Positions 1 to 23,356 of a stretch of 64,000 nucleotides of DNA are shown here, one piece after another; the first letter of the stretch is position 1, and each line of letters opens with the position of its first letter. Origin of the DNA: Escherichia coli 042 (lineage in GTDB: Bacteria > Pseudomonadota > Gammaproteobacteria > Enterobacterales > Enterobacteriaceae); the NCBI RefSeq assembly GCF_000027125.1, contig NC_017626.1; one strand, written 5' to 3'. The translations under genes and the position numbers were made by a program. The notes below the pieces were generated by a model. The model made no database searches. It had not been told where the DNA came from and saw nothing but the letters and a program-made list of their open reading frames with translations.

Positions 1-469
1 TACAGGGTTCGGTGATGGTATAGCGGTATTTGTGTGCGCCTGTGCGTTCCGGTACAACACACCCCGGCGCATAAGGATGAAGTGATTTTGGCTGCCCGTC
101 CTGCCCCCACTCAATAACCGCATAGGCGTTACCGTTCAGCAGACAGTGACGCATCATTGTGCGTTTAAACTGGTAAGGTGTCTGGCACGAATTAGGCTGC
201 TCATTCAGCAGAATATCTACCGGATGACTGTCCAGCCATTCCCGCGCCTCCCTGCCCTTGTCATTACGTACCAGATACAGATAACACGGCATCGTGGCCA
301 CCGCCTCAGCGATGACAGAAACCGCGTTCATCACAGCAGGCAATGATTCAGCCGTCCCGGCAGAAACATATTCTCCGGATCCGGTATTCGGTACGCCGGA
401 CAGCGCCAGAAAATCATCAATGGACAGGTTACGTTGCTCGCTTTTTTTACGACTAAAAGGCCACCACAT
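1..469 (-). CDS. phage portal protein, HK97-type (N-terminal part only; gene continues beyond window start)
   Basis: Hand translation of minus strand from ATG at 469-467 gives MWWPFSRKKSEQRNLSIDDFLAL..., an N-terminus typical of HK97-family portals; start overlaps protease stop (ATGA). Absent from ORF track because the stop lies outside the window. Confidence 0.5.
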   Translation of the reverse strand, partial: MWWPFSRKKSEQRNLSIDDFLALSGVPNTGSGEYVSAGTAESLPAVMNAVSVIAEAVATMPCYLYLVRNDKGREAREWLDSHPVDILLNEQPNSCQTPYQFKRTMMRHCLLNGNAYAVIEWGQDGQPKSLHPYAPGCVVPERTGAHKYRYTITEPC

Positions 470-470
470 A

Positions 471-1031
471 TCACAACCCCGCCAGTTCAGCCCAGCGATG
501 ACGATTATTTCCTGCCGGGCGTAATTCAGGGTGCTGTGCAAACAACGAACGGTGGGCAATCTCCACGCCAGATTCTGGATAAGCAGGCATCGACGTTATT
601 GTGATTTCTCGGAGTTCAGCGGCGGTTACGGTACGCAAATACGGTTTTTGCGCGATATTCCATTCTTCGCATAATGCGCGAAAGCCAAAGCTCATTCCTG
701 TAATGTCGCCACGCGACACCAGCGTGAGCACATCTTTTCCAAGCTGGGTATCAGGCGGTGTCAGTTCAAAACGTAGCCCGGTGTTGTCCCCAGTCAGTAC
801 CAGAGTGCCGGATTTGGTGCGCCCCAGCAGTTGGGTATAGTCATGCTCATACAGGCAGCGCACATCATTACCCGCCGCCAGATAGTCAGCAAAAGCCCCC
901 GGCGTGAACTGTTCGCGGAATTCGTCCCAGATAATTTCTGAAAGGCTGTTCCAGCGAACGGCATACCCCACCAGCTTTTTATTGCTGGCGGTCAGTTCAG
1001 ATGTGCGGATTTCAAAATCGGTGTTTTTCAT
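471..1031 (-). CDS. HK97-family prohead maturation protease (S78)
   Basis: 186 aa; motif pattern VGYA..WN...D.F.E.F.PGAF......HD...LGRT.SGTL.L..D..GL.F......GD..G.SFGF typical of prohead proteases. Confidence 0.8.
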   Translation of the reverse strand: MKNTDFEIRTSELTASNKKLVGYAVRWNSLSEIIWDEFREQFTPGAFADYLAAGNDVRCLYEHDYTQLLGRTKSGTLVLTGDNTGLRFELTPPDTQLGKDVLTLVSRGDITGMSFGFRALCEEWNIAQKPYLRTVTAAELREITITSMPAYPESGVEIAHRSLFAQHPELRPAGNNRHRWAELAGL

Positions 1032-1085
1032 CGGTGTACTCCATAAAGCTGAAAAAGGAGGCCGCAGCCTCCTCCTTACTCATGA

Positions 1086-2255
1086 CTAGCCAGCTTTCAT
1101 TTCCAGAATTTTGATGGCGTTTGAATCCACCACACCACCGCCCAGATATTTATCCGTGTGGACCTTGTAGAATCCGGGTTCAGTAATGTTGTCCGGTCGG
1201 GTGCGAATCCCTGTTACATGATCAACGATGAAATAACCACGACTGAAATCGCCAACCGCTAGCGGTGCTTTTCCTGCGCCGATGTCCGGCATGGACTCCA
1301 GGCAGAAAACAGGACGACCAAGCAACATATCCGGCGCACCTTCTTTAAGGCTGTCGCGCCAGATATAATCGCCATTCTCATTTTTCAGCTTCTGTAGTGT
1401 CCCTGCCGTGCCCGAGTTCATCACCCAGACGGCATTTTTGCGGTATTTCGCTTTCAGCTTGTAGAGAATGTCGATCAGTTCGTCCGCTGTAATGGCGGTT
1501 CCACTTGCCGCTACCACTTTTTCAATGGTGCCAAAAGCGCGGGTTTTGTCACTGGTCGCCGCACGGGTGTAAGCCATGAAGCCTTTCGGCTTGCCGTTAC
1601 CGTCGCCATTAACAAAATCATCCTCTTCGGTGCTGGCGAACGTGTCGGCAATTTCGGAGGATAACCAGCCCAGAATATCCACCTCTGAAAAATCCAGGAT
1701 TTCCTGCGTGGTTTTCGGGTAGGCGTAGATCGGATTCAGCTTGATGGTTACACGTTCAATTTTCGGGGTGTTGGTTTCACTACGTGCGCTGCCTTCTGTG
1801 CCTCGTCCTACAGTTGCGCCGCCAGTGGAAACCAGTTTCTGAAACTCATTTGATTTTGCGGTCTTCACGGTCGCGATCACGCGCATAACACTGTCATCCT
1901 GTAGCTGGCGCATGACTTCGCGATCAAGCTCAGGAATTACGGTATATCCGCCATCCCTGCCGCTGTCAGTGCTGGTGGTCAGTGATCGCACATCTCCGGT
2001 TACGATGTAGTTACGCAATTCATCAGATGATAATTTCTGGATGCCCGTTCCTGGCTTGCTGCGTTCTTCATCAGCCACAGACTCGAGGCGGGAAATTTCT
2101 GTGTCGAGGGAATCGGCTTTTGCACGCAGTTCATCAAACTGTTTGCCCTCGTCATCGTTCAGGCTGCGGTTTTCACTGTCGGCTTTTTCCAGCAGGGATC
2201 GCATCTGGTTTTTCAGGGCGGTTTTTTGCTGGCGGAGTTCGATTAATTTCTTCAT
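1086..2255 (-). CDS. HK97-type major capsid protein with N-terminal coiled-coil delta/scaffold domain
   Basis: 389 aa; charged coiled-coil N-terminus then FVNGDGNG...NSGT...GDYIW pattern characteristic of HK97-fold capsid proteins. Confidence 0.85.
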   Translation of the reverse strand: MKKLIELRQQKTALKNQMRSLLEKADSENRSLNDDEGKQFDELRAKADSLDTEISRLESVADEERSKPGTGIQKLSSDELRNYIVTGDVRSLTTSTDSGRDGGYTVIPELDREVMRQLQDDSVMRVIATVKTAKSNEFQKLVSTGGATVGRGTEGSARSETNTPKIERVTIKLNPIYAYPKTTQEILDFSEVDILGWLSSEIADTFASTEEDDFVNGDGNGKPKGFMAYTRAATSDKTRAFGTIEKVVAASGTAITADELIDILYKLKAKYRKNAVWVMNSGTAGTLQKLKNENGDYIWRDSLKEGAPDMLLGRPVFCLESMPDIGAGKAPLAVGDFSRGYFIVDHVTGIRTRPDNITEPGFYKVHTDKYLGGGVVDSNAIKILEMKAG

Positions 2256-2541
2256 GAAGGTTTTCTCGTATTGGTTAAGATTCAGGACGTGAAACCAACA
2301 CGGAGGGAGCGCCGCCCGACACTCTCGGCATCTCGCAGATCAACCCGGCATCGCGCAGGGGGTCAGGCGGCATTGTGGCGGCTCACGTCTGAGTGCCACA
2401 CGCCAACATATACATAAAAATCAGTATGTAAACACCTGTCAGTAAGGCCGAACAACCACGAAAAAACACGAACAAATAATTTACAAAAGAAGTAAACCAT
2501 GGCCTATTATTGCTACCTCTGACTACAACAAAGGACGCATC

Positions 2542-3048
2542 ATGAATTTAAGCGCAATGGTATACCCTGATACTTTCATAATTAATGGCGAATCATTTAA
2601 AGGTAAAAGAAACGCAAAAGAAAACAAGGTATTAATTCCATATACAAATGAACCGGAAGTAACTATTGGTCAACACATTATCCAGTGTGTCGGTAAAAAC
2701 GAGATAAATCTAAAAATTATAGATATGAAGTTGCTTCCCAATGGAACCCTCAGACAGGGAACCAACCATCCAAATATGTTGACGCTCTATATTGAAAATA
2801 TCACGGGAAATGAACATATGACGCCACCTAAAAGTAATACATTTAACATTGGTTCAATTAGTGGTAATCAAGTGCAGATAGGTGAGCATAACCATATGCT
2901 GGTAAACATCAGCATCACTGAACTGGTTGAAAAAGTCTCTAAATCGGGGGATGTACAAGCCAAATCAGTATTAAAGCAGTTACTGGAAAACAGTACCGTT
3001 GCCAGCATTGTTGGGGCTGGCGCAAGTGCCTTAATAGGCTTACTGTAA
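2542..3048 (+). CDS. hypothetical protein, AT-rich orphan cargo gene in satellite island
   Basis: 168 aa ORF with AAAGGA RBS upstream; only sizeable plus-strand gene in a minus-strand block; strongly AT-rich codon usage; hydrophobic Gly/Ala-rich C-terminus (VASIVGAGASALIGLL); no recognisable family. Confidence 0.55.
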   Translation: MNLSAMVYPDTFIINGESFKGKRNAKENKVLIPYTNEPEVTIGQHIIQCVGKNEINLKIIDMKLLPNGTLRQGTNHPNMLTLYIENITGNEHMTPPKSNTFNIGSISGNQVQIGEHNHMLVNISITELVEKVSKSGDVQAKSVLKQLLENSTVASIVGAGASALIGLL

Positions 3049-3083
3049 AAAAATGGCCTGGATTTTACCAGGCCTTTATCATT

Positions 3084-3371
3084 TTACCGTTTCACGGGAT
3101 CCCGCATTCTGCTTCTTAGTTTCCACAGGTATTCGATCATCGCTTCCACCTGCTCACGGTTGGTTGCGAAAATTTCCCCGGTCAGTGAGCTGCGCAGAAA
3201 ATCATGATGATCCACAACAAACAACGCATCGGAAGAAAGCAGACGGCGATATTTTTTTGCTGTCGTGGTTTCCAGATCATCAAAACCATGAAACTTTTTA
3301 TGTTGCTGAACTTCTTCAAATGTCACAGGCATGTTTCCTCCTGCTACCACGATACCAGAAACAGTTAACAA
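3084..3371 (-). CDS. hypothetical protein
   Basis: 95 aa ORF co-oriented with island replication genes; no recognisable motif. Confidence 0.35.
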   Translation of the reverse strand: MLTVSGIVVAGGNMPVTFEEVQQHKKFHGFDDLETTTAKKYRRLLSSDALFVVDHHDFLRSSLTGEIFATNREQVEAMIEYLWKLRSRMRDPVKR

Positions 3372-3673
3372 CCGTTATCAATTATCCCCTTTTTTTTCGG
3401 GTAGTTCCTGAACATCTCACCGCCAGGTTTCTGTAAGCCCATCCCGGTATGTGTGCGGTTTATGGCCTCTTTCAGTATTCCGAAATTATCCGGTATGACT
3501 GGTTGGCGCGCTGCCTTACGGATACATTCCGCGCGACGCTTTGCCACCTGTTCGCGCTCCTTGTCAGTGCTCACCAGCCACATAACATCAGCCCAACGTG
3601 CCGCCGCTCTCCGGTACAGCCCTTTAGCCTCCAGTTCTTCCGCTTTGCTGTCTTTAATCATGCTGTACCTCAC
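3365..3673 (-). CDS. PerC-family transcriptional activator-like protein
   Basis: 102 aa; MIKDSKAEELEAKGLYRRAAARWADVM resembles PerC-family N-terminus. Confidence 0.5.
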   Translation of the reverse strand: MRYSMIKDSKAEELEAKGLYRRAAARWADVMWLVSTDKEREQVAKRRAECIRKAARQPVIPDNFGILKEAINRTHTGMGLQKPGGEMFRNYPKKKGIIDNGC

Positions 3674-3676
3674 TGC

Positions 3677-4102
3677 TTAAAACGGTATCCCGTCCCCGTA
3701 CGGATCATCGTGCTGGCCTGTCTGTTGTTTTGCCCTGTTCAGTGCGTCAGTAGCCTGGCCCTGCTGGCCTTTTTTGCCGCCCGGTCGCGCCGTTCGCGCA
3801 CTGATTACGCTGTCTGCGATGACCTGCCAGCCCTGCCGCATTTCGCCGTTCTGGCCTGTCCACTGGCTTACCTGCATGTTACCCGCCACACTCACCAGTT
3901 CGCCTTTCTGGTGTTTTGCCAGTGCATCGGCCTGTCTGCCAAACGCCAGGACGGATAACCACATCGTCGCCGTTCCGTCATCTGCCTGGCTGCACGGCAG
4001 GGGAACCGCCATACTCGCCATAGCCATTTGTGTCCCCTTGCTGGTGGTCTTTAACTGCGGGTCAGCCACCAGCCGCCCGTAAGCCGCTATCTGTGCTGTC
4101 AT
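3677..4102 (-). CDS. single-stranded DNA-binding protein-like (OB-fold)
   Basis: 141 aa; OB-fold-like core followed by Gly/Gln-rich tail and acidic C-terminal end (DDPYGDGIPF) as in SSB proteins. Confidence 0.55.
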   Translation of the reverse strand: MTAQIAAYGRLVADPQLKTTSKGTQMAMASMAVPLPCSQADDGTATMWLSVLAFGRQADALAKHQKGELVSVAGNMQVSQWTGQNGEMRQGWQVIADSVISARTARPGGKKGQQGQATDALNRAKQQTGQHDDPYGDGIPF

Positions 4103-4312
4103 GCTGTCTGTTCTCCGGTTTTAACGTTGATTGTTACGCTTGTTTACACCCTTACGGTGAAATTCTGCGGGTTATAATCGCACTTTTGCGGGTTATAACT
4201 GCCGTTTTGCGGGTTACGTGCGGGTTACTGATTTCCTTTTTATTCATACAGTTAATGCACTTATACACAGGATAACCCGCATAACCCGCAACTTTTCACC
4301 TCACACAGGGGG

Positions 4313-6433
4313 TTAATCTTCTGCCTCAGGCTGGAACATCAGCACGTAAAAAACATGCTGCTTCCCCCCAATTTTGCCGAGCGCCTTTTTCTTGTAACGG
4401 CGATCGTTACCCGCTTCCAGCATTCCGGCAGCACTCAACGCGCGGGCAAAGTGAGACGGATTAAATCCCTGTGCTATCTCACCCTCAAATACATGCGGGA
4501 ACGTGTAAAAACGGAACTCGTCATCTTCGTTTCTGATACTCCCCTTTCTGTATCCGGCAAGCTCTTTAATCGGTAAATCACGCTCGTCGGTGTTGGGCCA
4601 CGGAAGGTATCTGCTGAATCCGAACGACGCTAAAAAAGCCTCTGCCTGTTCAACCATCTGTTTAAACTCCCTGTTACCCGTGCCGAACTCCTTCACCCAG
4701 GCATTAAAATTATGCTGAATGGCATCGCGGCACGCCTGAACATCCCAACCAGTAATATGGACGGAAAGCACCAGCGCCGACTCCAGCATGGCGAATCGTT
4801 CCCCCACACGGTGAACCTGTTCGCCGTAACTCTCCGGTATCAGGTTGCGCCACCGTTCACGGCATGCCCTTACCGTATCCTTTGCCTCCTGCTGGTGGTC
4901 TGCCAGCCATTTAACCCATTCACGCCCCGCCGCCCCGTGATTTTCTGTCCAGGCATCCTTTAACGCGTCTGCGTGTGCCTTTCCGGTGCTGTATTCGTGA
5001 AACTGCGTGGCTTTTTCCATTGGCACGTTAAGCAGGCGGACAAGCTGCCCCGCCTTGACTTTTATCCCCTCCGTTTTGAGGAATGTCTCAACGTCCATTT
5101 CTCCGGTGCTGATTGCCACCGTGCGCCAGTGTTTGATCTCCCTGTTGCCGCCGTCCTTCGCCCCCTGTAATTTCCCCGAACCGTTAAACAGCGTATAAGC
5201 CGACGTGGACACTTCCCGCGCGTTTCCGGCCTGACCTATTTCATCCAGGGGTAATAGCCCGTCATTGTGCGCCTCTGCCTCGTTGGCGATGCCTAACGCT
5301 GTACCGTACCAGGTCAGCCGTTGCGCGTCCGGCTCTCCCCATAAACTGGATGCGATGTTCTGTGTGGTGGTTTTCCCTGCCGATGACTGTTCGAAAAGAT
5401 GTACCCCGAAGCCGTCAGCACCCACCAGCCCGATTAATGGTGCGGATAACGATACCGCCACACCCAGCATCATGGACGGATTACCACCAGCCAGCCGCGC
5501 AACGGTATCGCGCCAGCCCTCCGCCGTTCCTGCCACAGAATAGCCATTAACGGCAGCCGTTTTTCCGGTAAACAGGATCGGTTTTTCAGACTCACCAATG
5601 ACTGAACCGTCCGGCATGATGTACGCACCAAAATGCCAGCCCGTTGTTGTGCTTAACTGCCATTCCTCATGGTTTCCGCTTAACTGCATCCAGTCAGCCA
5701 GGATAGCCCTGTATTTGCCGTTAGTTGTTACGTTAAGGCCGTGGTCTTTCAGCAACCGCCAGCCGTCACGGTCGCCAATGCCCCCGCACGGAACCGCCAT
5801 TGTGATGACTTCATGGTTTGCGGGTTTCTTCCAGCGCATCACGCGGTAATGCTCTTTGCCGATTGTCCCCGTTCCCAGTAGTTCAAGCGGGGAACATAAC
5901 CACGTCTCAGGCCGGATAATTTCGCCTGACTGCTTGTCAACTTTGGGCGTTACCCAGAAAACACCATCGGCGCGACTTTCAACGCGGGGCTTTAATTCAT
6001 CATCGCCCTGGCTTTCTGTGATTTTTTTCTTTAAGGGCAACACCAGACTTTCCCCGCGCTCGTATTCGTCTTTCAGCCGGGCAAGCTGCGGTGTCCAGTC
6101 CTCCAGTAGTTCACCGTTCTCGTCACAAAAACTGGCTTCCTTAACACCAGCCACTGCCAGCAGGGTTTCAATCTGTAACGCCTGTCTGTCATCCAGCTTT
6201 CCGGCACGTCTGACCATGGCGCGTAACCGTCCATCATCCACAATACGCAGGTTTTCCAGATTACCCAGGTCACGCCGCCCGAGATAAACAGGTGGTATTT
6301 TGTCGCCGCGCTTTCTGGCTTCTCCGCCCTGCATGTAATGCTCTGCGTGGCTGTATGCGTCATCCCCCGCAAAAATCACTGCATCCTCGCCTTTATCTTT
6401 CGGTAACAGTTTTACGTTCGGTGCCAGTTTCAT
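4313..6433 (-). CDS. satellite/P4-family primase-helicase-like replication protein (DUF927/Toprim-like)
   Basis: 706 aa; central Walker A-like SSAGKTT; size and position after int/alpA match replication proteins of P4-like and PICI elements. Confidence 0.6.
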   Translation of the reverse strand: MKLAPNVKLLPKDKGEDAVIFAGDDAYSHAEHYMQGGEARKRGDKIPPVYLGRRDLGNLENLRIVDDGRLRAMVRRAGKLDDRQALQIETLLAVAGVKEASFCDENGELLEDWTPQLARLKDEYERGESLVLPLKKKITESQGDDELKPRVESRADGVFWVTPKVDKQSGEIIRPETWLCSPLELLGTGTIGKEHYRVMRWKKPANHEVITMAVPCGGIGDRDGWRLLKDHGLNVTTNGKYRAILADWMQLSGNHEEWQLSTTTGWHFGAYIMPDGSVIGESEKPILFTGKTAAVNGYSVAGTAEGWRDTVARLAGGNPSMMLGVAVSLSAPLIGLVGADGFGVHLFEQSSAGKTTTQNIASSLWGEPDAQRLTWYGTALGIANEAEAHNDGLLPLDEIGQAGNAREVSTSAYTLFNGSGKLQGAKDGGNREIKHWRTVAISTGEMDVETFLKTEGIKVKAGQLVRLLNVPMEKATQFHEYSTGKAHADALKDAWTENHGAAGREWVKWLADHQQEAKDTVRACRERWRNLIPESYGEQVHRVGERFAMLESALVLSVHITGWDVQACRDAIQHNFNAWVKEFGTGNREFKQMVEQAEAFLASFGFSRYLPWPNTDERDLPIKELAGYRKGSIRNEDDEFRFYTFPHVFEGEIAQGFNPSHFARALSAAGMLEAGNDRRYKKKALGKIGGKQHVFYVLMFQPEAED

Positions 6434-6729
6434 TTTTTACCTCTGGATGCGCTGAGCATGCTTTTTATTTTCTTAATATTTTCCCGTGCTTTTTCCCTGC
6501 TGGTGGGCTTACCGCGTGTTGCGTTCTGTACCAGAGAAAAATCACGCCGGAACTGATAAACAGGCATCACGCAGTCATAGCCGTACCCATCACGGCGGTA
6601 AGTAACGCACCGTCCCGCCACGCTTTTAATCGTTACCGTGCCGCCGTAGTTATCCCGGAAAATATCGCCGGGGCGGATTTCAGGCCGAGCGGGGCCGCTG
6701 GCAGTAAAGCCAGAAATTTTCTGTTTCAT
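6430..6729 (-). CDS. hypothetical protein
   Basis: 99 aa ORF, stop overlaps primase start; basic C-terminus. Confidence 0.4.
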   Translation of the reverse strand: MKQKISGFTASGPARPEIRPGDIFRDNYGGTVTIKSVAGRCVTYRRDGYGYDCVMPVYQFRRDFSLVQNATRGKPTSREKARENIKKIKSMLSASRGKK

Positions 6730-6734
6730 GGTTT

Positions 6735-6968
6735 TTATTTCCCGGTGTGTTGCTCTTTATATCTGTCGTGCAAGATGTCTATTTCTTGCAGTTCATTTAT
6801 TACAGGCTCAAGAAGCGTTATTAATGCTGTTGCAATATTGCTGTTGCGTTTATCTCTTTCATTATCGCCAAGCGTTTCAAGCCATAAGCGCAATATTTCA
6901 AGCATGTTTTCACTGTAAGCAAGTGCGCTGTATGCATGATCTACTGTGTCATTGTAAATATCATGCAT
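6735..6968 (-). CDS. hypothetical protein
   Basis: 77 aa ORF tightly packed in operon. Confidence 0.35.
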   Translation of the reverse strand: MHDIYNDTVDHAYSALAYSENMLEILRLWLETLGDNERDKRNSNIATALITLLEPVINELQEIDILHDRYKEQHTGK

Positions 6969-6971
6969 GGC

Positions 6972-7172
6972 TCACCCCCCCTGAATATTCGCGTTAATCA
7001 TTCCGACACGCTCTGCGAGTTCCTGTAATGATTCCCTTGTTGCGACAATTGCTTCATCTGGCAGGTGGTAATTACTCACCACGCGACCTTTATCCACATT
7101 GACTAGCAACTGCCCGGTGAATTTCTCACGAAACTGGATGCGGTTAAGGTCGGTAAGTGACAGGTTAATCAT
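6972..7172 (-). CDS. hypothetical protein
   Basis: 66 aa ORF, first gene after regulatory region. Confidence 0.35.
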   Translation of the reverse strand: MINLSLTDLNRIQFREKFTGQLLVNVDKGRVVSNYHLPDEAIVATRESLQELAERVGMINANIQGG

Positions 7173-7445
7173 GGTGTACCCCCTGACGAATACGGGCGGC
7201 GAATACCATCACGCAGCCAGCCGGGGATTGCTGGCGTGCTTCCTGTTCGCTGGTGGCCTCAATGGTAATCACGCGCGGTTGTGCCGTGCTCAGGGCGATA
7301 AAACGCCAGATATATTTATTCAGGTTGTGCGAGTCCCGCCCTTGCGGGTGTGTGGTATGATTTCTCATAGCTACCTCGATACTCTTGCTATCGTTGGTGG
7401 TTAGACGCCCTGCATGTGTTGCGAGCACTGCGGGGCGTTGCTTAA

Positions 7446-7556
7446 TTTGAGTGACAAAACTCAAACTGTGCGCACAGATTAAAATCATGTGTGCGCACAT
7501 GTCAATACTTAACATCTCATTTTTTTTGCTGTATTGTGTGCGCCCATAAAGTCCAT
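7446..7556. promoter_or_regulatory. candidate operator/switch region of the satellite island
   Basis: Perfect palindrome TGTGCGCACA at 7467-7476 and 7490-7499 (23 bp centre-to-centre), half-site TGTGCGCC at 7547; inverted repeat TTTGAGT-N6-ACTCAAA at 7446-7465; lies between oppositely oriented gene blocks. Confidence 0.5.
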
Positions 7557-7573
7557 TTAAGTGAGGTGCATCA

Positions 7574-7771
7574 ATGTCTAGCGGTAACACAAACAACAAA
7601 TCAGCAAAGAAAAATATTCGATTCCCACATGAGCTTATAGATGGGATTGATGCCAGCGTTGAACAAGAAAAATTAACTAATCCTAGTGCTAATTTTTCCG
7701 CATGGGTCTTAGATGCCTGTGGACGCAAATTAAAATATGAACAGCGCCGGAAGGCCAAAGAATCAGAATAA
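7574..7771 (+). CDS. small DNA-binding protein, possibly ribbon-helix-helix (candidate island regulator)
   Basis: 65 aa ORF immediately downstream of palindrome cluster; fold assignment is a guess. Confidence 0.4.
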   Translation: MSSGNTNNKSAKKNIRFPHELIDGIDASVEQEKLTNPSANFSAWVLDACGRKLKYEQRRKAKESE

Positions 7772-7813
7772 TCACTATCAGCGCCGTGGTGTGAGTAACT
7801 ACGGCGCATTGCT

Positions 7814-8002
7814 ATGCAGGACAACACAATGACCGATAAAGAATTGACCAAAACATTATCACCGACACGGAAAAGACGGCGCAGAAAGATAGAGCATGAA
7901 TCAGAAAGATTCGCACCTTGTTCGTTTGCTCTTGAGAAATTCCTTAAAGAGCGCAGGAAAAAGCTCTCGTTGCAAACCTTGGAACGAACCAAATCTGACT
8001 GA
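7814..8002 (+). CDS. hypothetical small basic protein
   Basis: 62 aa ORF, Arg/Lys-rich. Confidence 0.3.
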   Translation: MQDNTMTDKELTKTLSPTRKRRRRKIEHESERFAPCSFALEKFLKERRKKLSLQTLERTKSD

Positions 8003-8382
8003 TCACATTGCCCACCAGCCGCAAATGTGGCATTGTTGGTGATGCTTTTGTTTTCCCTTGTTCCCACTGGCGACCCTTTTGCGGTCGCCTTTGTTTTGCC
8101 TGTTATCCGGCAATAGTGGCGCTTCGTCACCTGTCTGATATAATTCCACAGCTTATATTCATTTTTTGCGCAGTAGGTTAATTGTTCGCAAGGGCGCTCC
8201 GGCAACGGGGCGCTTTTTGTTTTTACCCACCAGCACAATAAAAATCTTCATTTTCCATTTTTGTAAAATTTCATGCTTTCCGGACGACTGGTCATATGTC
8301 ATTTTTTAGCAGAAGATTTTGCCTTGCTGGTGGGTAGCTTCCCGGTCAACACGATGTACCGTATAATCAACACCGCGTGTGG

Positions 8383-8961
8383 TTACTGAATACGCTCACC
8401 AAAGTAAAACTCAGGCTGGTATTCACGTATCAGCCTTTTTTCTTCTTCCTCCAGCTCACGCTTTTTGCGCTTACATGCCTGTAGCTCCCTCCCCTTCTCA
8501 CTGGCACTTATCTGGTATTGCTCTTTGCGGCGGGAAAAATCCTGTAATGCGCCCCACGGGATACCATAAGCCCCCGTTTTTCTGATACCCGGTATCACAT
8601 TTCTGAATACCCAGTTACTGAAACGATGAGCAAATGTGCCAGGCGTCGTTGCTTTGCGGCTGCGGGCTATTAGTTTGTAGAAACCTGATTCGGAGATAAT
8701 GCTCATATTCTGATTTCCTCCGGGGGTGTAAGTTAAATTTACTCCCTTTTCGTCATCATCAAGCATCTGCAACGCCGTACGCGAATTGGTCAGTTCCAGC
8801 GCAGCACAAACATCCTTTGCAACAAACCACGGATCGCCGTTTAGATACACCACACGAACATCCACGCCATCAAAGCGCAGAACGACCAGATCACGAATAT
8901 CACAGAATTTTTTCACATGACGTGCGTCACCCTTGCCCGTCACGGCAATATTTTTATTCAT
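8383..8961 (-). CDS. Bro-N domain protein (phage antirepressor-like)
   Basis: 192 aa; N-terminal region with WFVAKDVCAALEL motif typical of BRO-N/antirepressor domains. Confidence 0.6.
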   Translation of the reverse strand: MNKNIAVTGKGDARHVKKFCDIRDLVVLRFDGVDVRVVYLNGDPWFVAKDVCAALELTNSRTALQMLDDDEKGVNLTYTPGGNQNMSIISESGFYKLIARSRKATTPGTFAHRFSNWVFRNVIPGIRKTGAYGIPWGALQDFSRRKEQYQISASEKGRELQACKRKKRELEEEEKRLIREYQPEFYFGERIQ

Positions 8962-9018
8962 TGCTTTTTACCTCACATACAAAAAACCCCGCATTGCGTG
9001 GTGCGGGGTTGTCGGTAA

Positions 9019-9327
9019 TTACTTATTGGCGTTTTTGTATGGGCTGTTTACTTCCTTTACTCCTGGCGGATGCATAACCCACCAGAGCACATCAGAGAGC
9101 AACCAGGAAACAGACACTTTCCCTAAATGAGCACGAGCAGGAAATGCTCCCTCCTGTTCAAGTACCCAACGTCTGCTTCTTGAAAGCCCGGTACGATTGG
9201 CACACTCATGTTCGCGTATACGGCGATCATACGGTTCGCCATGATCTTTCAGAATCTGAATGCGTTCTTCGGGTGTAGGATAAATAAATTTTTGCATAAA
9301 AATATCACCTATAAAAAAACCCGCCAA
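9019..9327 (-). CDS. AlpA-like transcriptional regulator
   Basis: 102 aa; GLSRSRRWVLEQEGAFPAR pattern similar to AlpA/phage regulatory family. Confidence 0.5.
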   Translation of the reverse strand: MAGFFIGDIFMQKFIYPTPEERIQILKDHGEPYDRRIREHECANRTGLSRSRRWVLEQEGAFPARAHLGKVSVSWLLSDVLWWVMHPPGVKEVNSPYKNANK

Positions 9328-9360
9328 AAGACGGGTTGATTATATCTCATTTAATTTAGC

Positions 9361-9594
9361 TCAGGGTTTCCATTCACCTTTTACCCATTCCAGCACCTCA
9401 GATAAGCGCCAGACTTTTGTTTGTGGGCCAATACATATTTTTCGTGGAAATTTTCCTTCCTTTTCAAGTAACGATCTGTGTCTCCTGCCAAGAGCGGTTA
9501 ACCATGCACATTCATCTTCCTTAATCATCCTGTCGATTGTTTCATCATTTTCAAGTTCTTCACGCGTAACTATTTGAATCATTACTGTCACCAC
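9361..9594 (-). CDS. alpA: AlpA-family prophage regulatory protein
   Basis: 77 aa; HTH then FPRKICIGPQTKVWRLSEVLEWV, classic AlpA signature; directly downstream of integrase. Confidence 0.65.
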   Translation of the reverse strand: MVTVMIQIVTREELENDETIDRMIKEDECAWLTALGRRHRSLLEKEGKFPRKICIGPQTKVWRLSEVLEWVKGEWKP

Positions 9595-18239: not shown

Positions 18240-19289
18240 TTACCCAAGCACGCCAGTTGCAAAGGCGTGATCAAGAAAACGAAAAATTAAATCAACCTGA
18301 GAACCATGCTTTTCTTCGAACGCCAGCGGATCCGCATGAAGCTCGTTGTGATGCTCCCGACACAGCGGTAGCGTGAAAATATCGTGAGATTTTGTCCCCA
18401 TTCCGCCCTGACCATGACCAATCAGGTGATGGGGATCGTCGGCTGGCTTACCACAACACGCACACGGCTGTGTCTTCACCCAGCGTGTGTATTTCTCGTT
18501 AACCCAGCGGCGACGTTTAGGTCGTTTCATGAAAGATTCCGGAGACTCAGGATCAACGGCAATGCTGACCACCGTCTTTTCCTGTGGTGGGTTCTGTTGC
18601 TGGTGGGCGTGAGGCAGCGGCGCAAGATTTTTTGTGCGCTGTTTCAGTATGCTGGTGGCGGTCTGCTCTCCCGGTACGATGTCGCTTTCACGGTACATTG
18701 AGCGGATTTTTTCCGCACGCAACCCCAGCGAACGACGTAATACCGCTTCCGGTAGCGCGTCCGCCACCTGATTGCGGACCGCCCACCAGGATAATTCAGC
18801 CAGAGATAATTCACGCTCCTGCGTACCGCTTATTGCGTGACCGATGACGTCAATCATCCATGCTGACAGGTTTTGATGAGCAAGTTGCTCGAGTGATTCG
18901 GATGTCTGGTCACGCAGCTGGTTGTCGCAGTGCCAGCACAACACCATTGCGCCGGTACCATAACGGTGAATGACGGTTTCGCTGTGATGATAATCGCCGT
19001 GTGGCCACTGGCAGGATTTAATATGGCGCAACAGCCAGTCAGACAATGCACCAGCACCACCAGCAGCACGAATCACCCGTGCGTTACTGAAAAACGGCAG
19101 CAATGTTTTGTCTTCCACCAGCGGCTGGCGAGCGGCAGGAACGACCCCGGACGGCAGATTACGCATGCTTTTCGGTTCCGGCTCCACCAGTAACCGGGTA
19201 TTGTGGAATACCGGCATGGATTCACGGCCCGGCTTAACGATCACCAGCCCGAGTTCCGGTACCAGAACAGGTCGAAGTAATACCCGCAC
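18240..19289 (-). CDS. DUF968-like prophage protein with C-terminal HNH-like zinc finger
   Basis: 349 aa; C-terminal CACCGKPADDPHHL...CREHHNELH; same size and position as Qin YdfU. Confidence 0.6.
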   Translation of the reverse strand: MRVLLRPVLVPELGLVIVKPGRESMPVFHNTRLLVEPEPKSMRNLPSGVVPAARQPLVEDKTLLPFFSNARVIRAAGGAGALSDWLLRHIKSCQWPHGDYHHSETVIHRYGTGAMVLCWHCDNQLRDQTSESLEQLAHQNLSAWMIDVIGHAISGTQERELSLAELSWWAVRNQVADALPEAVLRRSLGLRAEKIRSMYRESDIVPGEQTATSILKQRTKNLAPLPHAHQQQNPPQEKTVVSIAVDPESPESFMKRPKRRRWVNEKYTRWVKTQPCACCGKPADDPHHLIGHGQGGMGTKSHDIFTLPLCREHHNELHADPLAFEEKHGSQVDLIFRFLDHAFATGVLG

Positions 19290-19290
19290 G

Positions 19291-19569
19291 TTACCTCCAG
19301 ATGCGTTGCTGGAATGTGCGGGACGGACGCGGTGGGCGTTCGGAGTGAGGCAATCTGACTGAGATTATCCAGTGACGGTAGTCGAGGCTAAGGGCTTTTT
19401 TAACCTCGTATCCGCGCCTGCGGTAACACTGAATTATCCATTCAGCCTGCTCTTCAGTGCATGGTGGATGCTGGAACCAGTCCGATTTGAATGCATGAAA
19501 ACGCCGTCCGCACCTGCTGGCAAAGACGGCAGAATCATCAGAATTGTGTAATTTGGTATCGTGCGCCAT
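19291..19569 (-). CDS. hypothetical prophage protein (Rem-like)
   Basis: ORF 19291-19650; likely start at internal Met (MAHDTKLHNSDD). Confidence 0.4.
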   Translation of the reverse strand: MAHDTKLHNSDDSAVFASRCGRRFHAFKSDWFQHPPCTEEQAEWIIQCYRRRGYEVKKALSLDYRHWIISVRLPHSERPPRPSRTFQQRIWR

Positions 19570-19865
19570 CGGTTGTCTCTGCTGGCGCAGCAGGTGCCAG
19601 TTGTTCAGGCTGGCGTGCGAATTGTAAACCAGAATGCCAGGAAAAAACAAAACCCGCCGAAGCGGGTATGCTAAAACAAACTGAAAGTAATATACCGGAC
19701 TTGTAAAGGAACGATAGAATAATTATTGGATTAAACCCTGACTCAATCCAGATTTCATAGGCAACAACTACGGACTAATCATCACAGTCATGTTTGATAG
19801 GCTTAGTCCACATTGGGTGAGGGTTTACGGCGTTTTCACTAATAATTTATCGTCCAAGCTATACA

Positions 19866-20258
19866 CTACTGCCCTGTTTTAACGAAGTTTTTAAAGGAAA
19901 CAACTGCCTGATAGGGGTTTGGTTGACAGCCAAACATATTATCGCAAAAAGGCTTGATGAAAATTCTTGAGGATCCATCTTCATTTGGCATTTTACTCAC
20001 TTGATAAGCGAGGAATGGACTATTTGGAGAGGGATTATAAGTGGAAATTAGCGTGTCTGTCGCCGTTTGAATTTTCCATGAGGAATTATTAGCCAACCAG
20101 AATTGCGCTCGTTTCCAATAAAAGTCACATTGCTTTTCATCATTACATGTTAGTGGCTTCATTGCTTCTGCTTTCAACGCTGGATCGACCTTTGCTGCAC
20201 ACCCTCCCAACATTACTGTTGCAATCATTACACCTGCGACTAAAACAAGTTTCTTCAT
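19866..20258 (-). CDS. putative lipoprotein (prophage moron)
   Basis: 130 aa; signal peptide with lipobox LGGC. Confidence 0.55.
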   Translation of the reverse strand: MKKLVLVAGVMIATVMLGGCAAKVDPALKAEAMKPLTCNDEKQCDFYWKRAQFWLANNSSWKIQTATDTLISTYNPSPNSPFLAYQVSKMPNEDGSSRIFIKPFCDNMFGCQPNPYQAVVSFKNFVKTGQ

Positions 20259-20401
20259 CTCCCTGCCCCATCAATAAAAGTTCGGTTCTCTAATAACTAG
20301 AGTTAATCAACGGAAAAAACGCCGAAGCGGGTTAAGTGCGGGTGCGTTGAGGATGCCTGACACATCAGAGGTGGCGAGGGATTTCTCCCCCGCCAGGTCT
20401 C

Positions 20402-20557
20402 TTACTCCTCAGGTTCGTAAGCTGTGAAGACAGCGACCTCCGTCTGGCCGGTTCGGATTCGTACCTCGCAGAGGTCTTTCCTCGTTACCAGTGCCGTCAC
20501 AATGACGGTTAAACAGATGACGATCAGGGCGATTAGCATCGCCTTTTGCTGCTTCAT
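20402..20557 (-). CDS. hokD: Hok/Gef-family type I toxin
   Basis: MKQQKAMLIALIVICLTVIVTALVTRKDLCEVRIRTGQTEVAVFTAYEPEE, Hok-family 51-aa toxin; longer overlapping frame to 20614 is Mok-like leader. Confidence 0.8.
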   Translation of the reverse strand: MKQQKAMLIALIVICLTVIVTALVTRKDLCEVRIRTGQTEVAVFTAYEPEE

Positions 20558-20848
20558 AGCCTGCTTCTCCTTGCCTTTCGGCGCGTAAGAGGCTAACCTA
20601 GATTTGCCGTTCATAGATTGAGCCTCAGATTAATGTTAAGCGTCTTGCAGGACGCGTAATGTTAACTGGGGCTTTTCTCTATCTGCCTTTTGGTGTTCAT
20701 GCCTGAGACAGATAGCCTCAAGCACCCGCTGCAATTCTACTTAACTCTCCTTTTCCCGCAAACCGTTTTTATCCCCAGCGGCAAATCGAATACACCACCA
20801 GCGCCACCGCCATCGCAATTCCTACCGTTGTTAATGCTTCAGGCCAGC

Positions 20849-21751
20849 TCATTGATTCACCTCCTGCGGCGGTTCTGGTAGCGGCATCCAGTGTGACGGT
20901 TTCCACGACGCACCAGGAATTATCCACCCATCATTAGCGTCAGGATGCCCGGGGATGTAAGTAGCCCATTTCATTCGCCAGTCACCTTTCCTGTCAAACT
21001 CCACGGCAACAAGAACGGCTGTTTTGGTATTCGGCATTCGCTCACTACAGCTTATCCAACCATCCGGAGTTGCCGGAGAGTTGCCCGATAGTGCATTCTG
21101 CTCCAGTGATGCTTTTACAAACCACGCTGCCTGAACTATAACGCCATGAATCCAGCGCAAATCAGCATCGCGATCTTTCTTTTTCATCTTTTCGCCACTT
21201 AAGGCCTTGCTTATGTGGCTGCGTACCAGGTCTTCATGTAATTCCTTCGCCTCCTCAATGGTGAAACCACCAGGCAGAAGAGCCGGAGTTACCGGAGAGC
21301 TGGTTGACGCTTCCGGGATTTCCCGAAAATTATTGGTTGACGAATTCTTGCTTTCCCGAAAGTTTCCGGACTGAAGCATGGCGGTGCGGCAGGCGTTCCA
21401 TATTTCGGCAGCAATATCGCGCTCGCTATCGGTTAATTTGTACGTGGAAACATAGCCAGAGAGCATTTCTACGTTTTCCGGAGTTGCTTCTTCCGGCACT
21501 ACCGGCGCTGGCGGGGCGATGCGTCCAAGCAACTTATTTACCTCTTTCGCCATCGCGTCATATTTATCTAAATGGCGATTAGCTTCTAAGCAGACTCGGC
21601 GCATCTGATCTGAGTTAACTCGTTTAACTGGATCTGCTTCCAGCGATGCCAGCGCAATCCGTGCCAGTTCCATTTGTTCACCACGGGTAAGCCCGTTTTC
21701 AAGCGGATTTTTAATGAACAATTCAATACGTTCTTTGGTAATAGTGGTCAT
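20849..21751 (-). CDS. DUF551 domain-containing prophage protein
   Basis: 300 aa; C-terminal W-rich DUF551-like region (DGWISCSERMP...GWIIPGASWKPSHWMPLPEPP). Confidence 0.55.
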   Translation of the reverse strand: MTTITKERIELFIKNPLENGLTRGEQMELARIALASLEADPVKRVNSDQMRRVCLEANRHLDKYDAMAKEVNKLLGRIAPPAPVVPEEATPENVEMLSGYVSTYKLTDSERDIAAEIWNACRTAMLQSGNFRESKNSSTNNFREIPEASTSSPVTPALLPGGFTIEEAKELHEDLVRSHISKALSGEKMKKKDRDADLRWIHGVIVQAAWFVKASLEQNALSGNSPATPDGWISCSERMPNTKTAVLVAVEFDRKGDWRMKWATYIPGHPDANDGWIIPGASWKPSHWMPLPEPPQEVNQ

Positions 21752-21761
21752 GTGTTACTCC

Positions 21762-22025
21762 TTAACCCGCAGTGCTTTCAACTGATGAGGGGAACAAAAT
21801 CTTTTCATCAAACCCTGCATTCATATCATGAACAGCAACACACCAATCCATCGACGAACGATTATCAAGAGCCTCCATGATTTCATCCATGCGGCGTAGG
21901 TCATACAGGTAAATGCTTTTATCGCCAATGGTGTAAAAACCAATTTTTTTCGGTGATGGGCAGCGATCAAGAACGTCCTGTAATTCGTTCAACCATGCCC
22001 GTTCTTTTTTTGTCAAAGTTGCCAT
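21762..22025 (-). CDS. hypothetical prophage protein
   Basis: 87 aa ORF in nin-like region. Confidence 0.4.
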   Translation of the reverse strand: MATLTKKERAWLNELQDVLDRCPSPKKIGFYTIGDKSIYLYDLRRMDEIMEALDNRSSMDWCVAVHDMNAGFDEKILFPSSVESTAG

Positions 22026-22026
22026 A

Positions 22027-22518
22027 TCACTCTCCTTTGATGCGAATACCAGTGGTACTCATTATCCTGATTTCCCAGAGCACACGAGGAACACCACCGT
22101 TTCCGACTGGATCGCGTTTACTCCGCAGGGCGACGCTTGATTCCGCCCAGCTTTTTCTTGGAGGAAGCTCTTTCACACGAACAAAACCAGCTGCGCGAAG
22201 AGATGCTCCTGATTCATCTGCCCGGGTGTACGTAATACAACGTTGATAACCCATAGCTTTTGCTGCCCGCCAGACAGCACCATAAAGCGCGCTGTTAGCG
22301 TTGCGTTCTCCTGTGGTACATGTGCGATTTACTTCAAGCGTTAATCCATCGTCCAAATGTCGTGCAACAGGTCTACCGGCTGTCGCCACACCTATCAATT
22401 CTCCGGCATCATTTCTCAGACCAATGCTGAATTTATGCCCCACCGGGGGTTTATTGTGTCGGTGATGTCTGGATATAAACGCCTTCGCAACACGAAGAGT
22501 AACCGGTGAAATTTGCAT
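22027..22518 (-). CDS. hypothetical prophage protein
   Basis: ORF 22027-22557; probable start at MQISPVTL. Confidence 0.4.
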   Translation of the reverse strand: MQISPVTLRVAKAFISRHHRHNKPPVGHKFSIGLRNDAGELIGVATAGRPVARHLDDGLTLEVNRTCTTGERNANSALYGAVWRAAKAMGYQRCITYTRADESGASLRAAGFVRVKELPPRKSWAESSVALRSKRDPVGNGGVPRVLWEIRIMSTTGIRIKGE

Positions 22519-22520
22519 TC

Positions 22521-22880
22521 TCACTCTCCTTTGATGCCAATGTTTACAGACTGGCAAGCCTCTTTGAGCACCCAGTCAACAGCGTCTTTCCATGCTCCGG
22601 TTTCGACTGGCGGATTCTCACGCTTTACCTGTTCATAGAAACGCACTGCTTTAATCAATCCTTCTGGTGTCAGTGGCACAGGCGGGGCAGTGAATAACGC
22701 CTGAATTTCATAGTTCGGTCTGTCGTTGCAATCCTCTTTTGTCGGTACATATTTCCAGTCACCAACCCACTGCTTCCCCTGAAAGTCTGTAACGCCTTTT
22801 TTCACGTAGCGATATCGCCATGCCACTGGTTTTGCCTGCCCTGCCTTTTCATGCCCTTCCTGATAATTAATCTCGCTCAT
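22521..22880 (-). CDS. hypothetical prophage protein
   Basis: 119 aa ORF. Confidence 0.4.
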   Translation of the reverse strand: MSEINYQEGHEKAGQAKPVAWRYRYVKKGVTDFQGKQWVGDWKYVPTKEDCNDRPNYEIQALFTAPPVPLTPEGLIKAVRFYEQVKRENPPVETGAWKDAVDWVLKEACQSVNIGIKGE

Positions 22881-23356
22881 TCATCGCCCCACTCATCACA
22901 ATATGCTTCGACCGGTGTTTTCCCTGCTTCATAATCATCACGCCATGCTTCAGCATCAGCGGCACTTCCACCGCGTAACTCTGCATAATCCATTAACAGT
23001 TCATGCCATTCTTCAAAACTGGCGTTATATTTAGTTGAACCAAAATCAGCCATTTTGTTCTTCCTCTTCGTCTTTTATTTCGTGGTATGAGTAATTGCAG
23101 TAGTTAAAGAAAATATCTTTAGCTTCATCCTGTATTTCATCTGGTGTTGCATCATCATCCACTTCGAATTCATCCTCGAAATCTCCACCGGCTATTCCCG
23201 TTTCAATAATTATTTTGAATTTTCGCATTTCACTACCGCCCTTTCGGACGGCCTCCTGATGTTCTGAGGGTGCAGGAATCCCTCCGGTTAAGGATTTAAT
23301 AAAAATCGTTTCTGATTTAAATCTTCGGTATTTAGTTGTTAGTCGGTTTATAGCCT

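Follow-up and report, generated by a model that had tools for sequence, protein, structure and literature searches.

Capsid-first head genes at one end of an Escherichia coli 042 window very probably belong to a capsid-forming satellite nested in a helper terminase gene

The stretch of DNA analysed (the window; 64,000 nucleotides of Escherichia coli 042) begins within a block of three phage head genes on the minus strand, whose coordinates are collected with those of the other features in Table 1. The proteins were assigned by profile search. The capsid ORF matched TIGR01554 (major_cap_HK97, E 8e-102) and phrog_10 (E 1.5e-92), and the protease ORF matched TIGR01543 (E 4.8e-38, above the cutoff) and phrog_80 (E 1.4e-57). 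The portal fragment matched the portal family phrog_12 (E 5e-37); against TIGR01537 (portal_HK97) it scored 65.7 bits (E 3.8e-18), under the 112-bit cutoff, and covered model positions 1-111 of 343, because the protein is cut by the end of the window. E-values of this size exclude chance for all three genes. The portal fragment also shared 98.7% identity with the N-terminal part of an annotated full-length portal (404 aa, WP_000270255.1) from the related E. coli locus L001, and the full-length relative matched solved portal structures (e.g. 9lbn, E 3e-45). None of the three reading frames is interrupted: the capsid and protease genes are present in full, and the portal frame stays open up to the window edge. 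The identities, strand and coordinates given for these genes in the original prediction were confirmed, and the ORF at 469..1, which had been singled out for checking, is a portal gene.

Along the minus strand the genes are read capsid, protease, portal N-terminus, as had been predicted. In locus L001, which is 98.5% identical, the same strand continues through the portal into a head-tail connector, HNH, TerS and TerL. The portal remainder and these four genes are assigned to the element from its relatives, the window itself holding 156 portal codons. All 82 related loci checked kept the seven-gene order from capsid to TerL within the reach of their contigs, at capsid identities spanning 75% to 100%, and the order recurred in Pasteurella Pmp8 (capsid 61% identical). 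Of 5426 complete E. coli genomes, 173 carried the head block, annotated every time as capsid, protease, portal. Genes beyond the window might have restored the canonical order on the opposite strand; in the relatives they stay on the same strand and the canonical order is not restored. That order, given in the original prediction as portal-protease-capsid for HK97-type modules, was seen in the helper prophage described below and in phages ST64B, phiP27 and D14E. Relative to it the three head genes are reversed here, with connector, HNH, TerS and TerL downstream and without tail genes, and the arrangement of an HK97-like prophage module (TerS-TerL-portal-protease-capsid, then head-tail and tail genes) is not found. 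Circular permutation of the phage order was considered and rejected, as on reasoning it would yield portal-protease-capsid-adaptor-HNH-TerS-TerL, unlike the order observed.

Both junctions within the block were read directly from the sequence. The ATGA overlap that had been proposed is absent: the protease stop codon (473..471) and the portal ATG (469..467) are separated by a 1-nt spacer, and stop-T-ATG (TGATATG or TAATATG) was found at 84 of the 85 protease-portal junctions read from related loci. Translation of the portal is probably coupled to that of the protease through this junction. The capsid-protease spacer of 54 nt contains a predicted GC-rich hairpin with a U-run, and the protease's own Shine-Dalgarno sequence (GGAG) sits downstream of it. 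Folded individually, all 25 distinct spacer variants had a hairpin and T-run at the equivalent place, with stems of differing sequence (GGAGGC/GCCUCC, GGGGC/GCCCC, GGGGCU/AGCCCC and GGGCUA/UAGCCC). A simple terminator scan of the window did not call the hairpin, and single-sequence folding z-scores were weak (-1.76 for the hairpin, -1.65 for the leader described below). In its predicted fold it resembles an intrinsic terminator or attenuator, and it may act as one.

Upstream of the capsid gene, which lacks a canonical Shine-Dalgarno sequence, lies a conserved region with an invariant box, sigma70-like elements and three predicted hairpins, which may serve as promoter and leader. Direct repeats of 10-11 bp that are lineage-specific lie upstream of the -35 element. 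The basal helix of hairpin 2 covaries; hairpins 1 and 3 vary so little that their covariation statistics are weak. The 25-nt leader motif was found 120-150 nt upstream of a capsid gene of the capsid-forming satellite (cf-PICI) type in 108 of 109 usable IMG/VR hits, and the sole motif without a capsid gene (IMG/VR locus L138) lies in a truncated remnant adjoining another integrase. Alignment folding of the post-capsid spacer and the whole leader (MAFFT and RNAalifold) mis-registered the variable stems and recovered only leader hairpin 1; per-sequence folding was the more informative for the hairpins of both regions. A search of window positions 1-13000 against Rfam (E<=0.1) returned zero matches, which places the leader and the hairpins outside every curated RNA family. 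No further copies of the leader motifs occurred in the 64-kb window, helper late region included, so that the window gives no indication of a helper site mimicked by the satellite leader.

Table 1. Coordinates of features at the left end of the window.
Feature	Position	Strand	Remarks
HK97-family portal, 5' part	469..1	-	frame open, cut by window edge
Protease-portal junction, TGA-T-ATG	467..473	-	read directly from sequence; 1-nt spacer
HK97-family prohead (head maturation) protease	1031..471	-	186 aa
GC-rich hairpin and U-run, AAGGAGGAGGC-UGCG-GCCUCCUUUUU	1052..1077	-	fold prediction, within capsid-protease spacer
Major capsid protein, HK97-fold	2255..1086	-	389 aa; opens morphogenesis-packaging operon
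Promoter and leader region, conserved	2256..2487	-	putative function
Leader hairpin 3	about 2304..2264	-	3' arm stops a few nt short of capsid ATG
Leader hairpin 2, long	about 2371..2311	-	leader region
Leader hairpin 1, near-invariant GTGGCACTCAGACGTGAGCCGCCAC	2399..2375	-	leader region
Sigma70-like -35 and -10 elements	2432..2405	-	leader region
Invariant box TTTGTAAATTATTTGT	2487..2472	-	leader region
Accessory ORF, 168 aa	2542..3048	+	between replication zone and capsid operon; opposite orientation
Bidirectional terminator-like hairpin	3055..3074		after 168-aa ORF; terminator scan
Satellite replication zone	3084..6729	-	includes small hypothetical ORF
PerC-family or activator-like protein	3365..3673	-	replication zone
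SSB	3677..4102	-	replication zone
DUF927 primase-helicase	4313..6433	-	replication zone; primase annotation in relative, helicase-like domain match
DUF4222 protein	6430..6729	-	replication zone
Bro-N domain protein	8383..8961	-	phrog_2593, E 7e-86
AlpA-like excisionase/transcriptional regulator	9019..9327	-	phrog_2790, E 1.5e-34; RefSeq annotation of relative
Satellite tyrosine integrase	9560..10783	-	probable start M401 (MALNKLSDKK...) of 807-aa frame 11983..9560
attL core TTACCAA	10956..10962	-	junction of helper terL 5' fragment and satellite
Helper prophage DNA	10963..12465	-	terL 5' fragment and TerS
Helper TerS, P27-family	11983..12465	-	TIGR01558, E 1e-30

The accessory ORF of 168 aa matched phrog_5789 (unknown function, E 3.5e-86) and gave nothing significant against Pfam, PADLOC or NCBIfam. 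At the other end of the element, the integrase domain (NF007246, generic P4-type) covers residues 406-798 of the 807-aa ORF. A 343-codon 5' fragment of the interrupted helper terL immediately precedes int, shares its strand and reads in frame into the satellite. In L001 the terL 3' fragment lies beyond the satellite, the rejoined frame reads ...ARVNFFTK/HMNVWV..., and TTACCAA is common to both element junctions. From att to att the element in L001 measures ~15.3 kb (7716..22996), within the about 10-18 kb of cf-PICIs, and the window contains about 10.96 kb of the element. The PICI-type set of int, alpA and primase is present (integrase domain, phrog_2790 and DUF927). Neither lysis genes nor a complete tail module were found between attL and attR in L001 or in window positions 1..10962. 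The site is inside a prophage terL and not chromosomal, and no prophage integrates there; the search of Alqurainy et al. called for an att site that belongs to the element alone and that prophages never use, and did not envisage the terL configuration. The helper's own head module in L001 is separate and in canonical order. Its head proteins are 25-38% identical to those of the satellite, and the satellite connector gave no match at all to the helper connector. The proposal that the reversed module is not the helper prophage's own thus held. While the element is embedded, a terminator after the capsid gene could be overridden by read-through of a helper late transcript under antitermination.

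From these comparisons we conclude with high confidence that the morphogenesis-packaging operon of an enterobacterial cf-PICI, lying in a helper terL, begins in window positions 1..2255. The complete element would carry on one strand, over ~15.3 kb, int, AlpA-like, Bro-N, primase, SSB, capsid, protease, portal, connector, HNH, TerS and TerL genes, and would interrupt, at TTACCAA, the gene for the large terminase of an HK97/phiP27-like prophage. The content and order of a cf-PICI module were found in the window part, in L001 and in the 82 loci as far as their contigs reach. Both suggestions made for the unusual order proved sound. The arrangement is satellite-specific, in that the module lies in an element with int, AlpA, Bro-N, primase and SSB bounded by attL in a prophage terL. 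It also marks a distinct lineage: in a collection of 50,697 phage records, four satellite-like 'phage' records had capsids at least 61% identical, and true phages, which have the canonical order, reached 37% at most. Judged from sequence, capsid-protease-portal is the fixed order of a satellite lineage, neither a local rearrangement nor the helper's own module.

The same order was reported by Alqurainy et al. (2023, Cell Host Microbe; bioRxiv 10.1101/2022.09.08.507074) as the conserved organisation of proteobacterial cf-PICIs, and He et al. (bioRxiv 10.1101/2025.02.11.637232) used it as a search criterion and described a T=4 capsid of 240 copies. The prototype E. coli cf-PICI, EcCIEDL933, is likewise about 15 kb, carries capsid, protease, portal, connectors, HNH, TerS and TerL, and has neither tail nor lysis genes. 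Its capsid (PDB 9GYI) is 64.6% identical to that of the present element over the full length (E 2.9e-155), a divergence of about 35%; packaging proteins of cf-PICIs are expected to be 50-90% similar to those of EcCIEDL933, and judged on the capsid this is so here. EcCIEDL933 differs in its integration site, the present element lying in a prophage terL, and by implication in its integrase. Its int, alpA and rep have been described as 'identical' to those of the classical chromosomal PICIs EcCICFT073 and EcCIED1a, which sets it apart by description, and the replication protein here is a DUF927-type primase, unlike the rep described for EcCIEDL933. Formation of own small T=4 capsids and transfer with helper tails have been shown experimentally for EcCIEDL933 and a few other elements only.

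Integration in a prophage terL at TTACCAA indicates a helper-embedded PICI (HE-PICI), and the element appears, from its sequence, to be a member of site group A:Terminase_1:246 (Tommasini, Mageeney & Williams 2023, PMC10111431). The supplement of that paper gives 'ttaccaa' for the Eco*.15.A_Terminase_1_246 elements, and the attL and attR flanks match those found here. The group shares the prophage terL target, co-orientation with the late gene, the four-zone organisation and a similar size (~14.6 kb, against ~15.3 kb in L001), and in-frame fusion of a late-gene fragment to int was noted in the same paper. No difference from the group was found at the level tested. The authors hold that the late zone consists of late genes taken from helpers, and the terms 'cf-PICI' and 'capsid-forming' are absent from the searched text of PMC10111431.

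Modules of the HK97/phiP27/ST64B type share P27-family TerS, TerL, HK97 portal, protease, major capsid protein and HNH with the satellite; the phage examined has its cos site between HNH and terS. Their order is HNH, TerS, TerL, portal, protease, capsid, adaptor, tail, with the capsid last of the three head genes, and their portal and protease genes overlap, unlike those of the satellite; identity to the satellite does not exceed 37% (capsid) or 48% (protease). Firmicutes cf-PICIs of groups 1 and 2 (Alqurainy et al.) are alike in gene content and own small capsids, but by description are arranged otherwise, the operon of group 2 opening with HNH-TerS-TerL, and independent origins have been proposed for these groups (10.1101/2022.09.08.507074). 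Classical PICIs, SaPIs and P4 share helper dependence, the backbone of int, AlpA and primase and the Bro/immunity zone. Unlike the present element, they remodel helper capsids with CpmAB, Ccm, Sid or Rpp and do not have the full set of capsid, protease, portal and terminase genes.

Other explanations of the locus were weighed. The block could be a decaying or locally rearranged HK97-like prophage whose order is a strain-specific scramble without function, as its proteins are of the HK97 phage family, it lies inside a prophage and relatives have pseudogenes nearby. The frames are open, however, and the order is the same in the 82 loci (75% to 100% identity) and in the Pasteurella element (61%); satellite att sites flank the block, int, AlpA and primase accompany it, and the helper has a head module of its own. 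Such conserved synteny, with capsid, protease, portal in every one of the 173 carriers among 5426 complete E. coli genomes, contradicts a scramble and makes this explanation extremely unlikely. Recent capture of the late genes from the current helper, with an order that reflects the capture mechanism, follows from the model of Tommasini et al., in which late zones of PICIs are captured from helper prophages; PMC10111431 includes one case of two captured segments reversed relative to the prophage. Against it stand the 25-38% identity of satellite and helper head proteins, the unmatched connector, and the finding that no capsid in the 50,697 phage records, satellite-like records aside, exceeds 37% identity. 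The order is moreover fixed across genera, the acquisition of the head genes was concluded to be ancient in the founding paper (10.1101/2022.09.08.507074), and on reasoning a single event with two flanks cannot turn portal-protease-capsid into capsid-protease-portal. We regard recent capture as scarcely credible.

A very small autonomous temperate phage is a very unlikely reading. Relatives have been deposited as phages (vB_KppS-Ant, 16.5 kb; Pasteurella phage Pmp8, 15.3 kb), and GenBank phage records at 73% nucleotide and 61-76% capsid identity include one labelled 'induced prophage'. Yet the tail annotation of Pmp8 is a single 'tail terminator' CDS, and vB_KppS-Ant has one CDS labelled 'tail length tape measure protein' (label only). 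The att-bounded element of ~15 kb in L001 is without a tail module and without lysis genes, it sits within a complete tailed prophage, which it interrupts, and the homologous EcCIEDL933 depends on helper-phage tails and on induction of alpA by the helper (10.1101/2022.09.08.507074).

For a cf-PICI at this site, the head genes would, by homology to EcCIEDL933, build small T=4 capsids. These would package satellite DNA only, via the satellite's own HNH-TerS-TerL, and once filled would take helper-phage tails. The operon would have its own promoter and a structured leader, with the capsid gene first; the conserved hairpin after it would lower or uncouple expression of the protease and portal, of which far fewer copies are needed, and stop-T-ATG would couple portal to protease translation. 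On this model transcription would begin near 2398-2404 (minus strand), and part of the 3' ends would fall at about 1052.

The observation made in the original prediction is real and its interpretation correct, but both are already known, as a published account takes this order to define the organisation of proteobacterial cf-PICIs. In the cf-PICI texts searched, no mention was found of the terminator-like hairpin after the capsid gene or of the three-hairpin leader. We tentatively raise the possibility, which we think rather doubtful, that the capsid-first order is part of a dedicated cis-regulatory design, absent from those texts, that combines the leader, the post-capsid hairpin and stop-T-ATG. 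A conserved leader of ~150 nt may form one part of such a design, with hairpin 3 occupying the ribosome-binding region of the capsid gene. The design could time capsid synthesis and set the stoichiometry of capsid to protease to portal, and the leader could be a target of a late regulator of helper or satellite, or a cis antiterminator.

The left end of the window should be annotated as a capsid-forming satellite nested in a helper terminase gene and not as a scrambled prophage. It is established in the literature that cf-PICIs can move between species, since they make capsids of their own and need phages only for tails. The regulatory features are the only possibly new material. The leader and the post-capsid hairpin could explain the first place of the capsid gene and how a small operon yields 240 capsid subunits for every 12 of the portal. 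If confirmed, this would extend the biology of cf-PICIs usefully but incrementally.

The genes at the left end of the window were checked by ORF listing and translation, and capsid, protease and portal were confirmed as three co-oriented minus-strand genes (see table). The ATGA overlap that had been described for the protease and portal genes is absent; the junction reads TGA-T-ATG. Capsid and protease genes are separated by a 54-nt spacer. The frame running off the window edge was a portal as claimed, with matches to portal families; its TIGR01537 score was under the cutoff, and coverage was low (111 of 343 model positions, the first ones) because the window edge cuts the protein.

Features of the satellite and its junction with the helper prophage
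Feature	Coordinates	Strand	Evidence
Portal, 156 codons, open frame leaving window	469..1	-	phrog_12 E 5e-37
HK97 prohead protease, 186 aa	1031..471	-	TIGR01543 E 4.8e-38; phrog_80 1.4e-57
Terminator-like hairpin and U-run	1052..1077	-	
Major capsid protein, HK97-family, 389 aa	2255..1086	-	TIGR01554 E 8e-102; phrog_10 1.5e-92
Capsid leader	2256..2487	-	strongly conserved
Invariant box TTTGTAAATTATTTGT	within 2256..2487	-	conserved among related loci
Sigma70-like promoter, -35 and -10 elements	within 2256..2487	-	
Direct repeats, 10-11-bp, lineage-specific, between box and hairpins	within 2256..2487	-	sequence
Hairpin 1, near-invariant 25-mer GTGGCACTCAGACGTGAGCCGCCAC	within 2256..2487	-	
168-aa ORF, opposite orientation, between replication zone and capsid leader	2542..3048	+	phrog_5789
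PerC-family transcriptional-activator-like protein	3365..3673	-	phrog_994, phrog_10396
TerL-integrase open frame, 807 aa	9560..11983	-	
Junction core TTACCAA	10956..10962		
P27-family TerS	11983..12465	-	family match

Solved structures were searched with the window capsid, and the top match was PDB 9GYI (E 2.9e-155, 64.6% identity, full length). This is the capsid of EcCIEDL933, the prototype E. coli capsid-forming phage-inducible chromosomal island (cf-PICI); its shell is T=4, with 240 MCP copies, 47.5 nm across, and is without decoration protein or covalent crosslinks (He et al., bioRxiv 10.1101/2025.02.11.637232). The same study used the identical module order as a search criterion for cf-PICIs. 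The next solved structures were the gene transfer agent capsid proteins of Rhodobacter capsulatus (6tb9 and 6tba, E ~1e-55), which ranked above every phage capsid in PDB.

Genes beyond the window edge were read from locus L001 (NZ_OZ501612.1), obtained by megablast of window positions 1-9000 against complete E. coli genomes (98.5% identity across the 89% of the query that aligned). Identity of L001 to the window counterparts is 100% for capsid, 98.9% for protease and 98.7% for the portal N-terminus. In RefSeq the protease is followed on the same strand by a complete 404-aa portal, a head-tail connector, an HNH endonuclease, a small ORF, a P27-family TerS and TerL; canonical order is not restored off the window. 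Upstream of the head genes lie int, two HTH regulators, Bro-N, a DUF927 primase, SSB and a PerC-like protein. The element (~15.3 kb) interrupts a prophage terL pseudogene, one half of which lies on either side. The helper prophage has a separate set in canonical order (TerS, the interrupted terL, portal, protease, capsid, connector, tail genes), and its proteins are only distantly related to those of the satellite (capsid 25%, protease 38%, portal 30%, TerL ~30-33% identity; no match between connectors). The head module is thus not the helper's own, in agreement with the original prediction.

At the integration junction in the window, a single open frame carries the N-terminal 343 residues of helper TerL (residues 1-343) fused in frame to the satellite integrase, with its P4-type integrase domain at 406-798; the integrase likely starts at M401. 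When the L001 terL halves were joined across the core a continuous frame was obtained, ...ARVNFFTK being directly followed by HMNVWV.... Fusions of int with upstream late-gene fragments arise on integration and are an annotation artefact needing curation, and helper-embedded PICIs (HE-PICIs) occupy 14 sites in prophage late genes (Tommasini et al., PMC10111431). The supplement of that paper gives the att identity 'ttaccaa' for E. coli elements Eco*.15.A_Terminase_1_246, whose published attL and attR flanks match those of the present element. From the 9GYI match, the published module order and the att core and flank match, the element therefore belongs to two described, overlapping categories, the cf-PICIs and the A_Terminase_1_246 HE-PICIs.

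A capsid-based scan of IMG/VR gave 80 loci (capsids 75-100% identical), and seven L001 module proteins were searched by tblastn against 82 loci. Capsid, protease, portal, connector, HNH, TerS and TerL were on one strand in every locus, shortened only at contig ends. About 10 of the 82 have the helper-embedded pattern, in which part of a terL lies upstream and another portal-protease-capsid set, in canonical order, follows downstream. The identical order and a 1-nt protease-portal spacer were found in Pasteurella 'phage' Pmp8 (15.3 kb record, capsid 61% identical). Within a 50,697-record phage collection capsid identity drops from 76-61% to 37% or less, the higher values coming from four satellite-like records (vB_KppS-Ant, S.Kent 1-2-1, P12620-1 and Pmp8), all with capsid before protease; protease identity has a parallel gap, with values of 60% or more on one side and 48% or less on the other. 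Unlike the satellite, the three true phages inspected (ST64B, phiP27 and Pseudomonas D14E) have the order (HNH)-TerS-TerL-portal-protease-capsid-adaptor-tail. The fixed order, and the low capsid identity of true phages that keep the canonical one, uphold the proposed distinct satellite lineage.

The intact genes and the synteny conserved across the 82 loci and Pmp8 exclude a scrambled prophage remnant, and of 5426 complete E. coli genomes 173 carry the head block. Recent capture of the late genes from the present helper is likewise excluded, given satellite-helper identities of 25-38% and no close phage homologue in the 50,697 records. That the element is a tiny autonomous phage is unlikely: in L001 it is att-bounded, without tail module or lysis genes, and EcCIEDL933 depends on a helper (Alqurainy et al., bioRxiv 10.1101/2022.09.08.507074). 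The related 'phage' records vB_KppS-Ant and Pmp8 have one isolated tail-related annotation each.

Several GenBank 'phage' records (LR881103.1, OR544139.1, OR850982.1 and PQ569648.1; loci L002, L083 and L085) resemble or contain cf-PICIs. Two are 15-16.5 kb, in satellite order and without a tail module, each with a single tail-related annotation; in vB_KppS-Ant a 765-aa CDS after terL is annotated 'tape measure protein'. A 106 kb Klebsiella record has the cf-PICI block at its extreme end and is possibly a chimeric assembly.

Upstream of the capsid ATG ~235 nt are strongly conserved, and the flanking accessory DNA is not. With each sequence folded singly, three leader hairpins recur in most lineages; they were not shown by L031, the most divergent sequence folded. 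Hairpins 1 and 3 have little covariation because they are too invariant. In hairpin 2 the basal helix, at least 10 bp long, covaries: its complementary arms occur in 24 different pairs, a count qualified by the fact that the arms were chosen by folding. Hairpin 3 stops a few nt short of the capsid ATG, which has no Shine-Dalgarno sequence. In 108 of 109 usable IMG/VR matches the hairpin 1 25-mer precedes a cf-PICI-type capsid gene by 120-150 nt, and these include capsids only ~65% identical; the 25-mer had no Rfam match and no second copy within the 64-kb window. The sole IMG/VR locus with the 25-mer but without a following capsid gene is L138 (976..1000), where the element appears truncated and lies next to an unrelated pair of integrase and repressor genes.

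The DNA upstream of the leader is completely different between lineages, and therefore suggests an accessory-gene hotspot. The 168-aa ORF had no Pfam, PADLOC or NCBIfam match; the Klebsiella relative L085 has an opposite-strand ORF at the equivalent position (11225..11737). The PerC-family protein, whose gene closely precedes the capsid operon, is a candidate for regulating the capsid promoter. In pathogenic E. coli, PerC homologues are also known to regulate virulence.

The capsid-protease spacer contains a terminator-like GC-rich hairpin followed by a U-run, at the equivalent place in 25 of 25 distinct variants from E. coli, Klebsiella-type and Pasteurella elements, with varying stems (GGAGGC/GCCUCC, GGGGC/GCCCC, GGGGCU/AGCCCC, GGGCUA/UAGCCC). 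The protease has its own ribosome-binding site, GGAG, 3' of this hairpin, and stop-T-ATG was found at 84 of the 85 protease-portal junctions read. The spacer hairpin was absent from the output of a simple terminator scan, and the folding z-scores giving thermodynamic support for the expression model were weak (-1.76 and -1.65).

The capsid-protease-portal order is a published family hallmark, set out for proteobacterial cf-PICIs by Alqurainy et al. (bioRxiv 10.1101/2022.09.08.507074), and both arrangement and element type have already been described; the original observation was real and rightly interpreted, and is not new. What may still be new is the conserved leader, together with the hairpin that follows the capsid gene. 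Neither 'promoter' nor 'terminator' occurs in the cf-PICI texts searched; two papers matched both EcCIEDL933 and promoter in full text.

By homology, capsid, protease and portal would form small T=4 procapsids, connector proteins would finish the neck, and HNH, TerS and TerL would cut and package satellite DNA, with helper tails attached afterwards. In the model of Tommasini et al. (PMC10111431) satellite excision is needed before the helper makes its own terminase, because the element interrupts helper terL. The capsid operon would have its own regulated promoter and leader, with capsid, presumably the most abundant product, encoded first; the post-capsid hairpin may attenuate or uncouple expression downstream, and portal may be coupled to protease. 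Tentatively, and less likely than not, a dedicated cis-regulatory design might underlie the capsid-first order.
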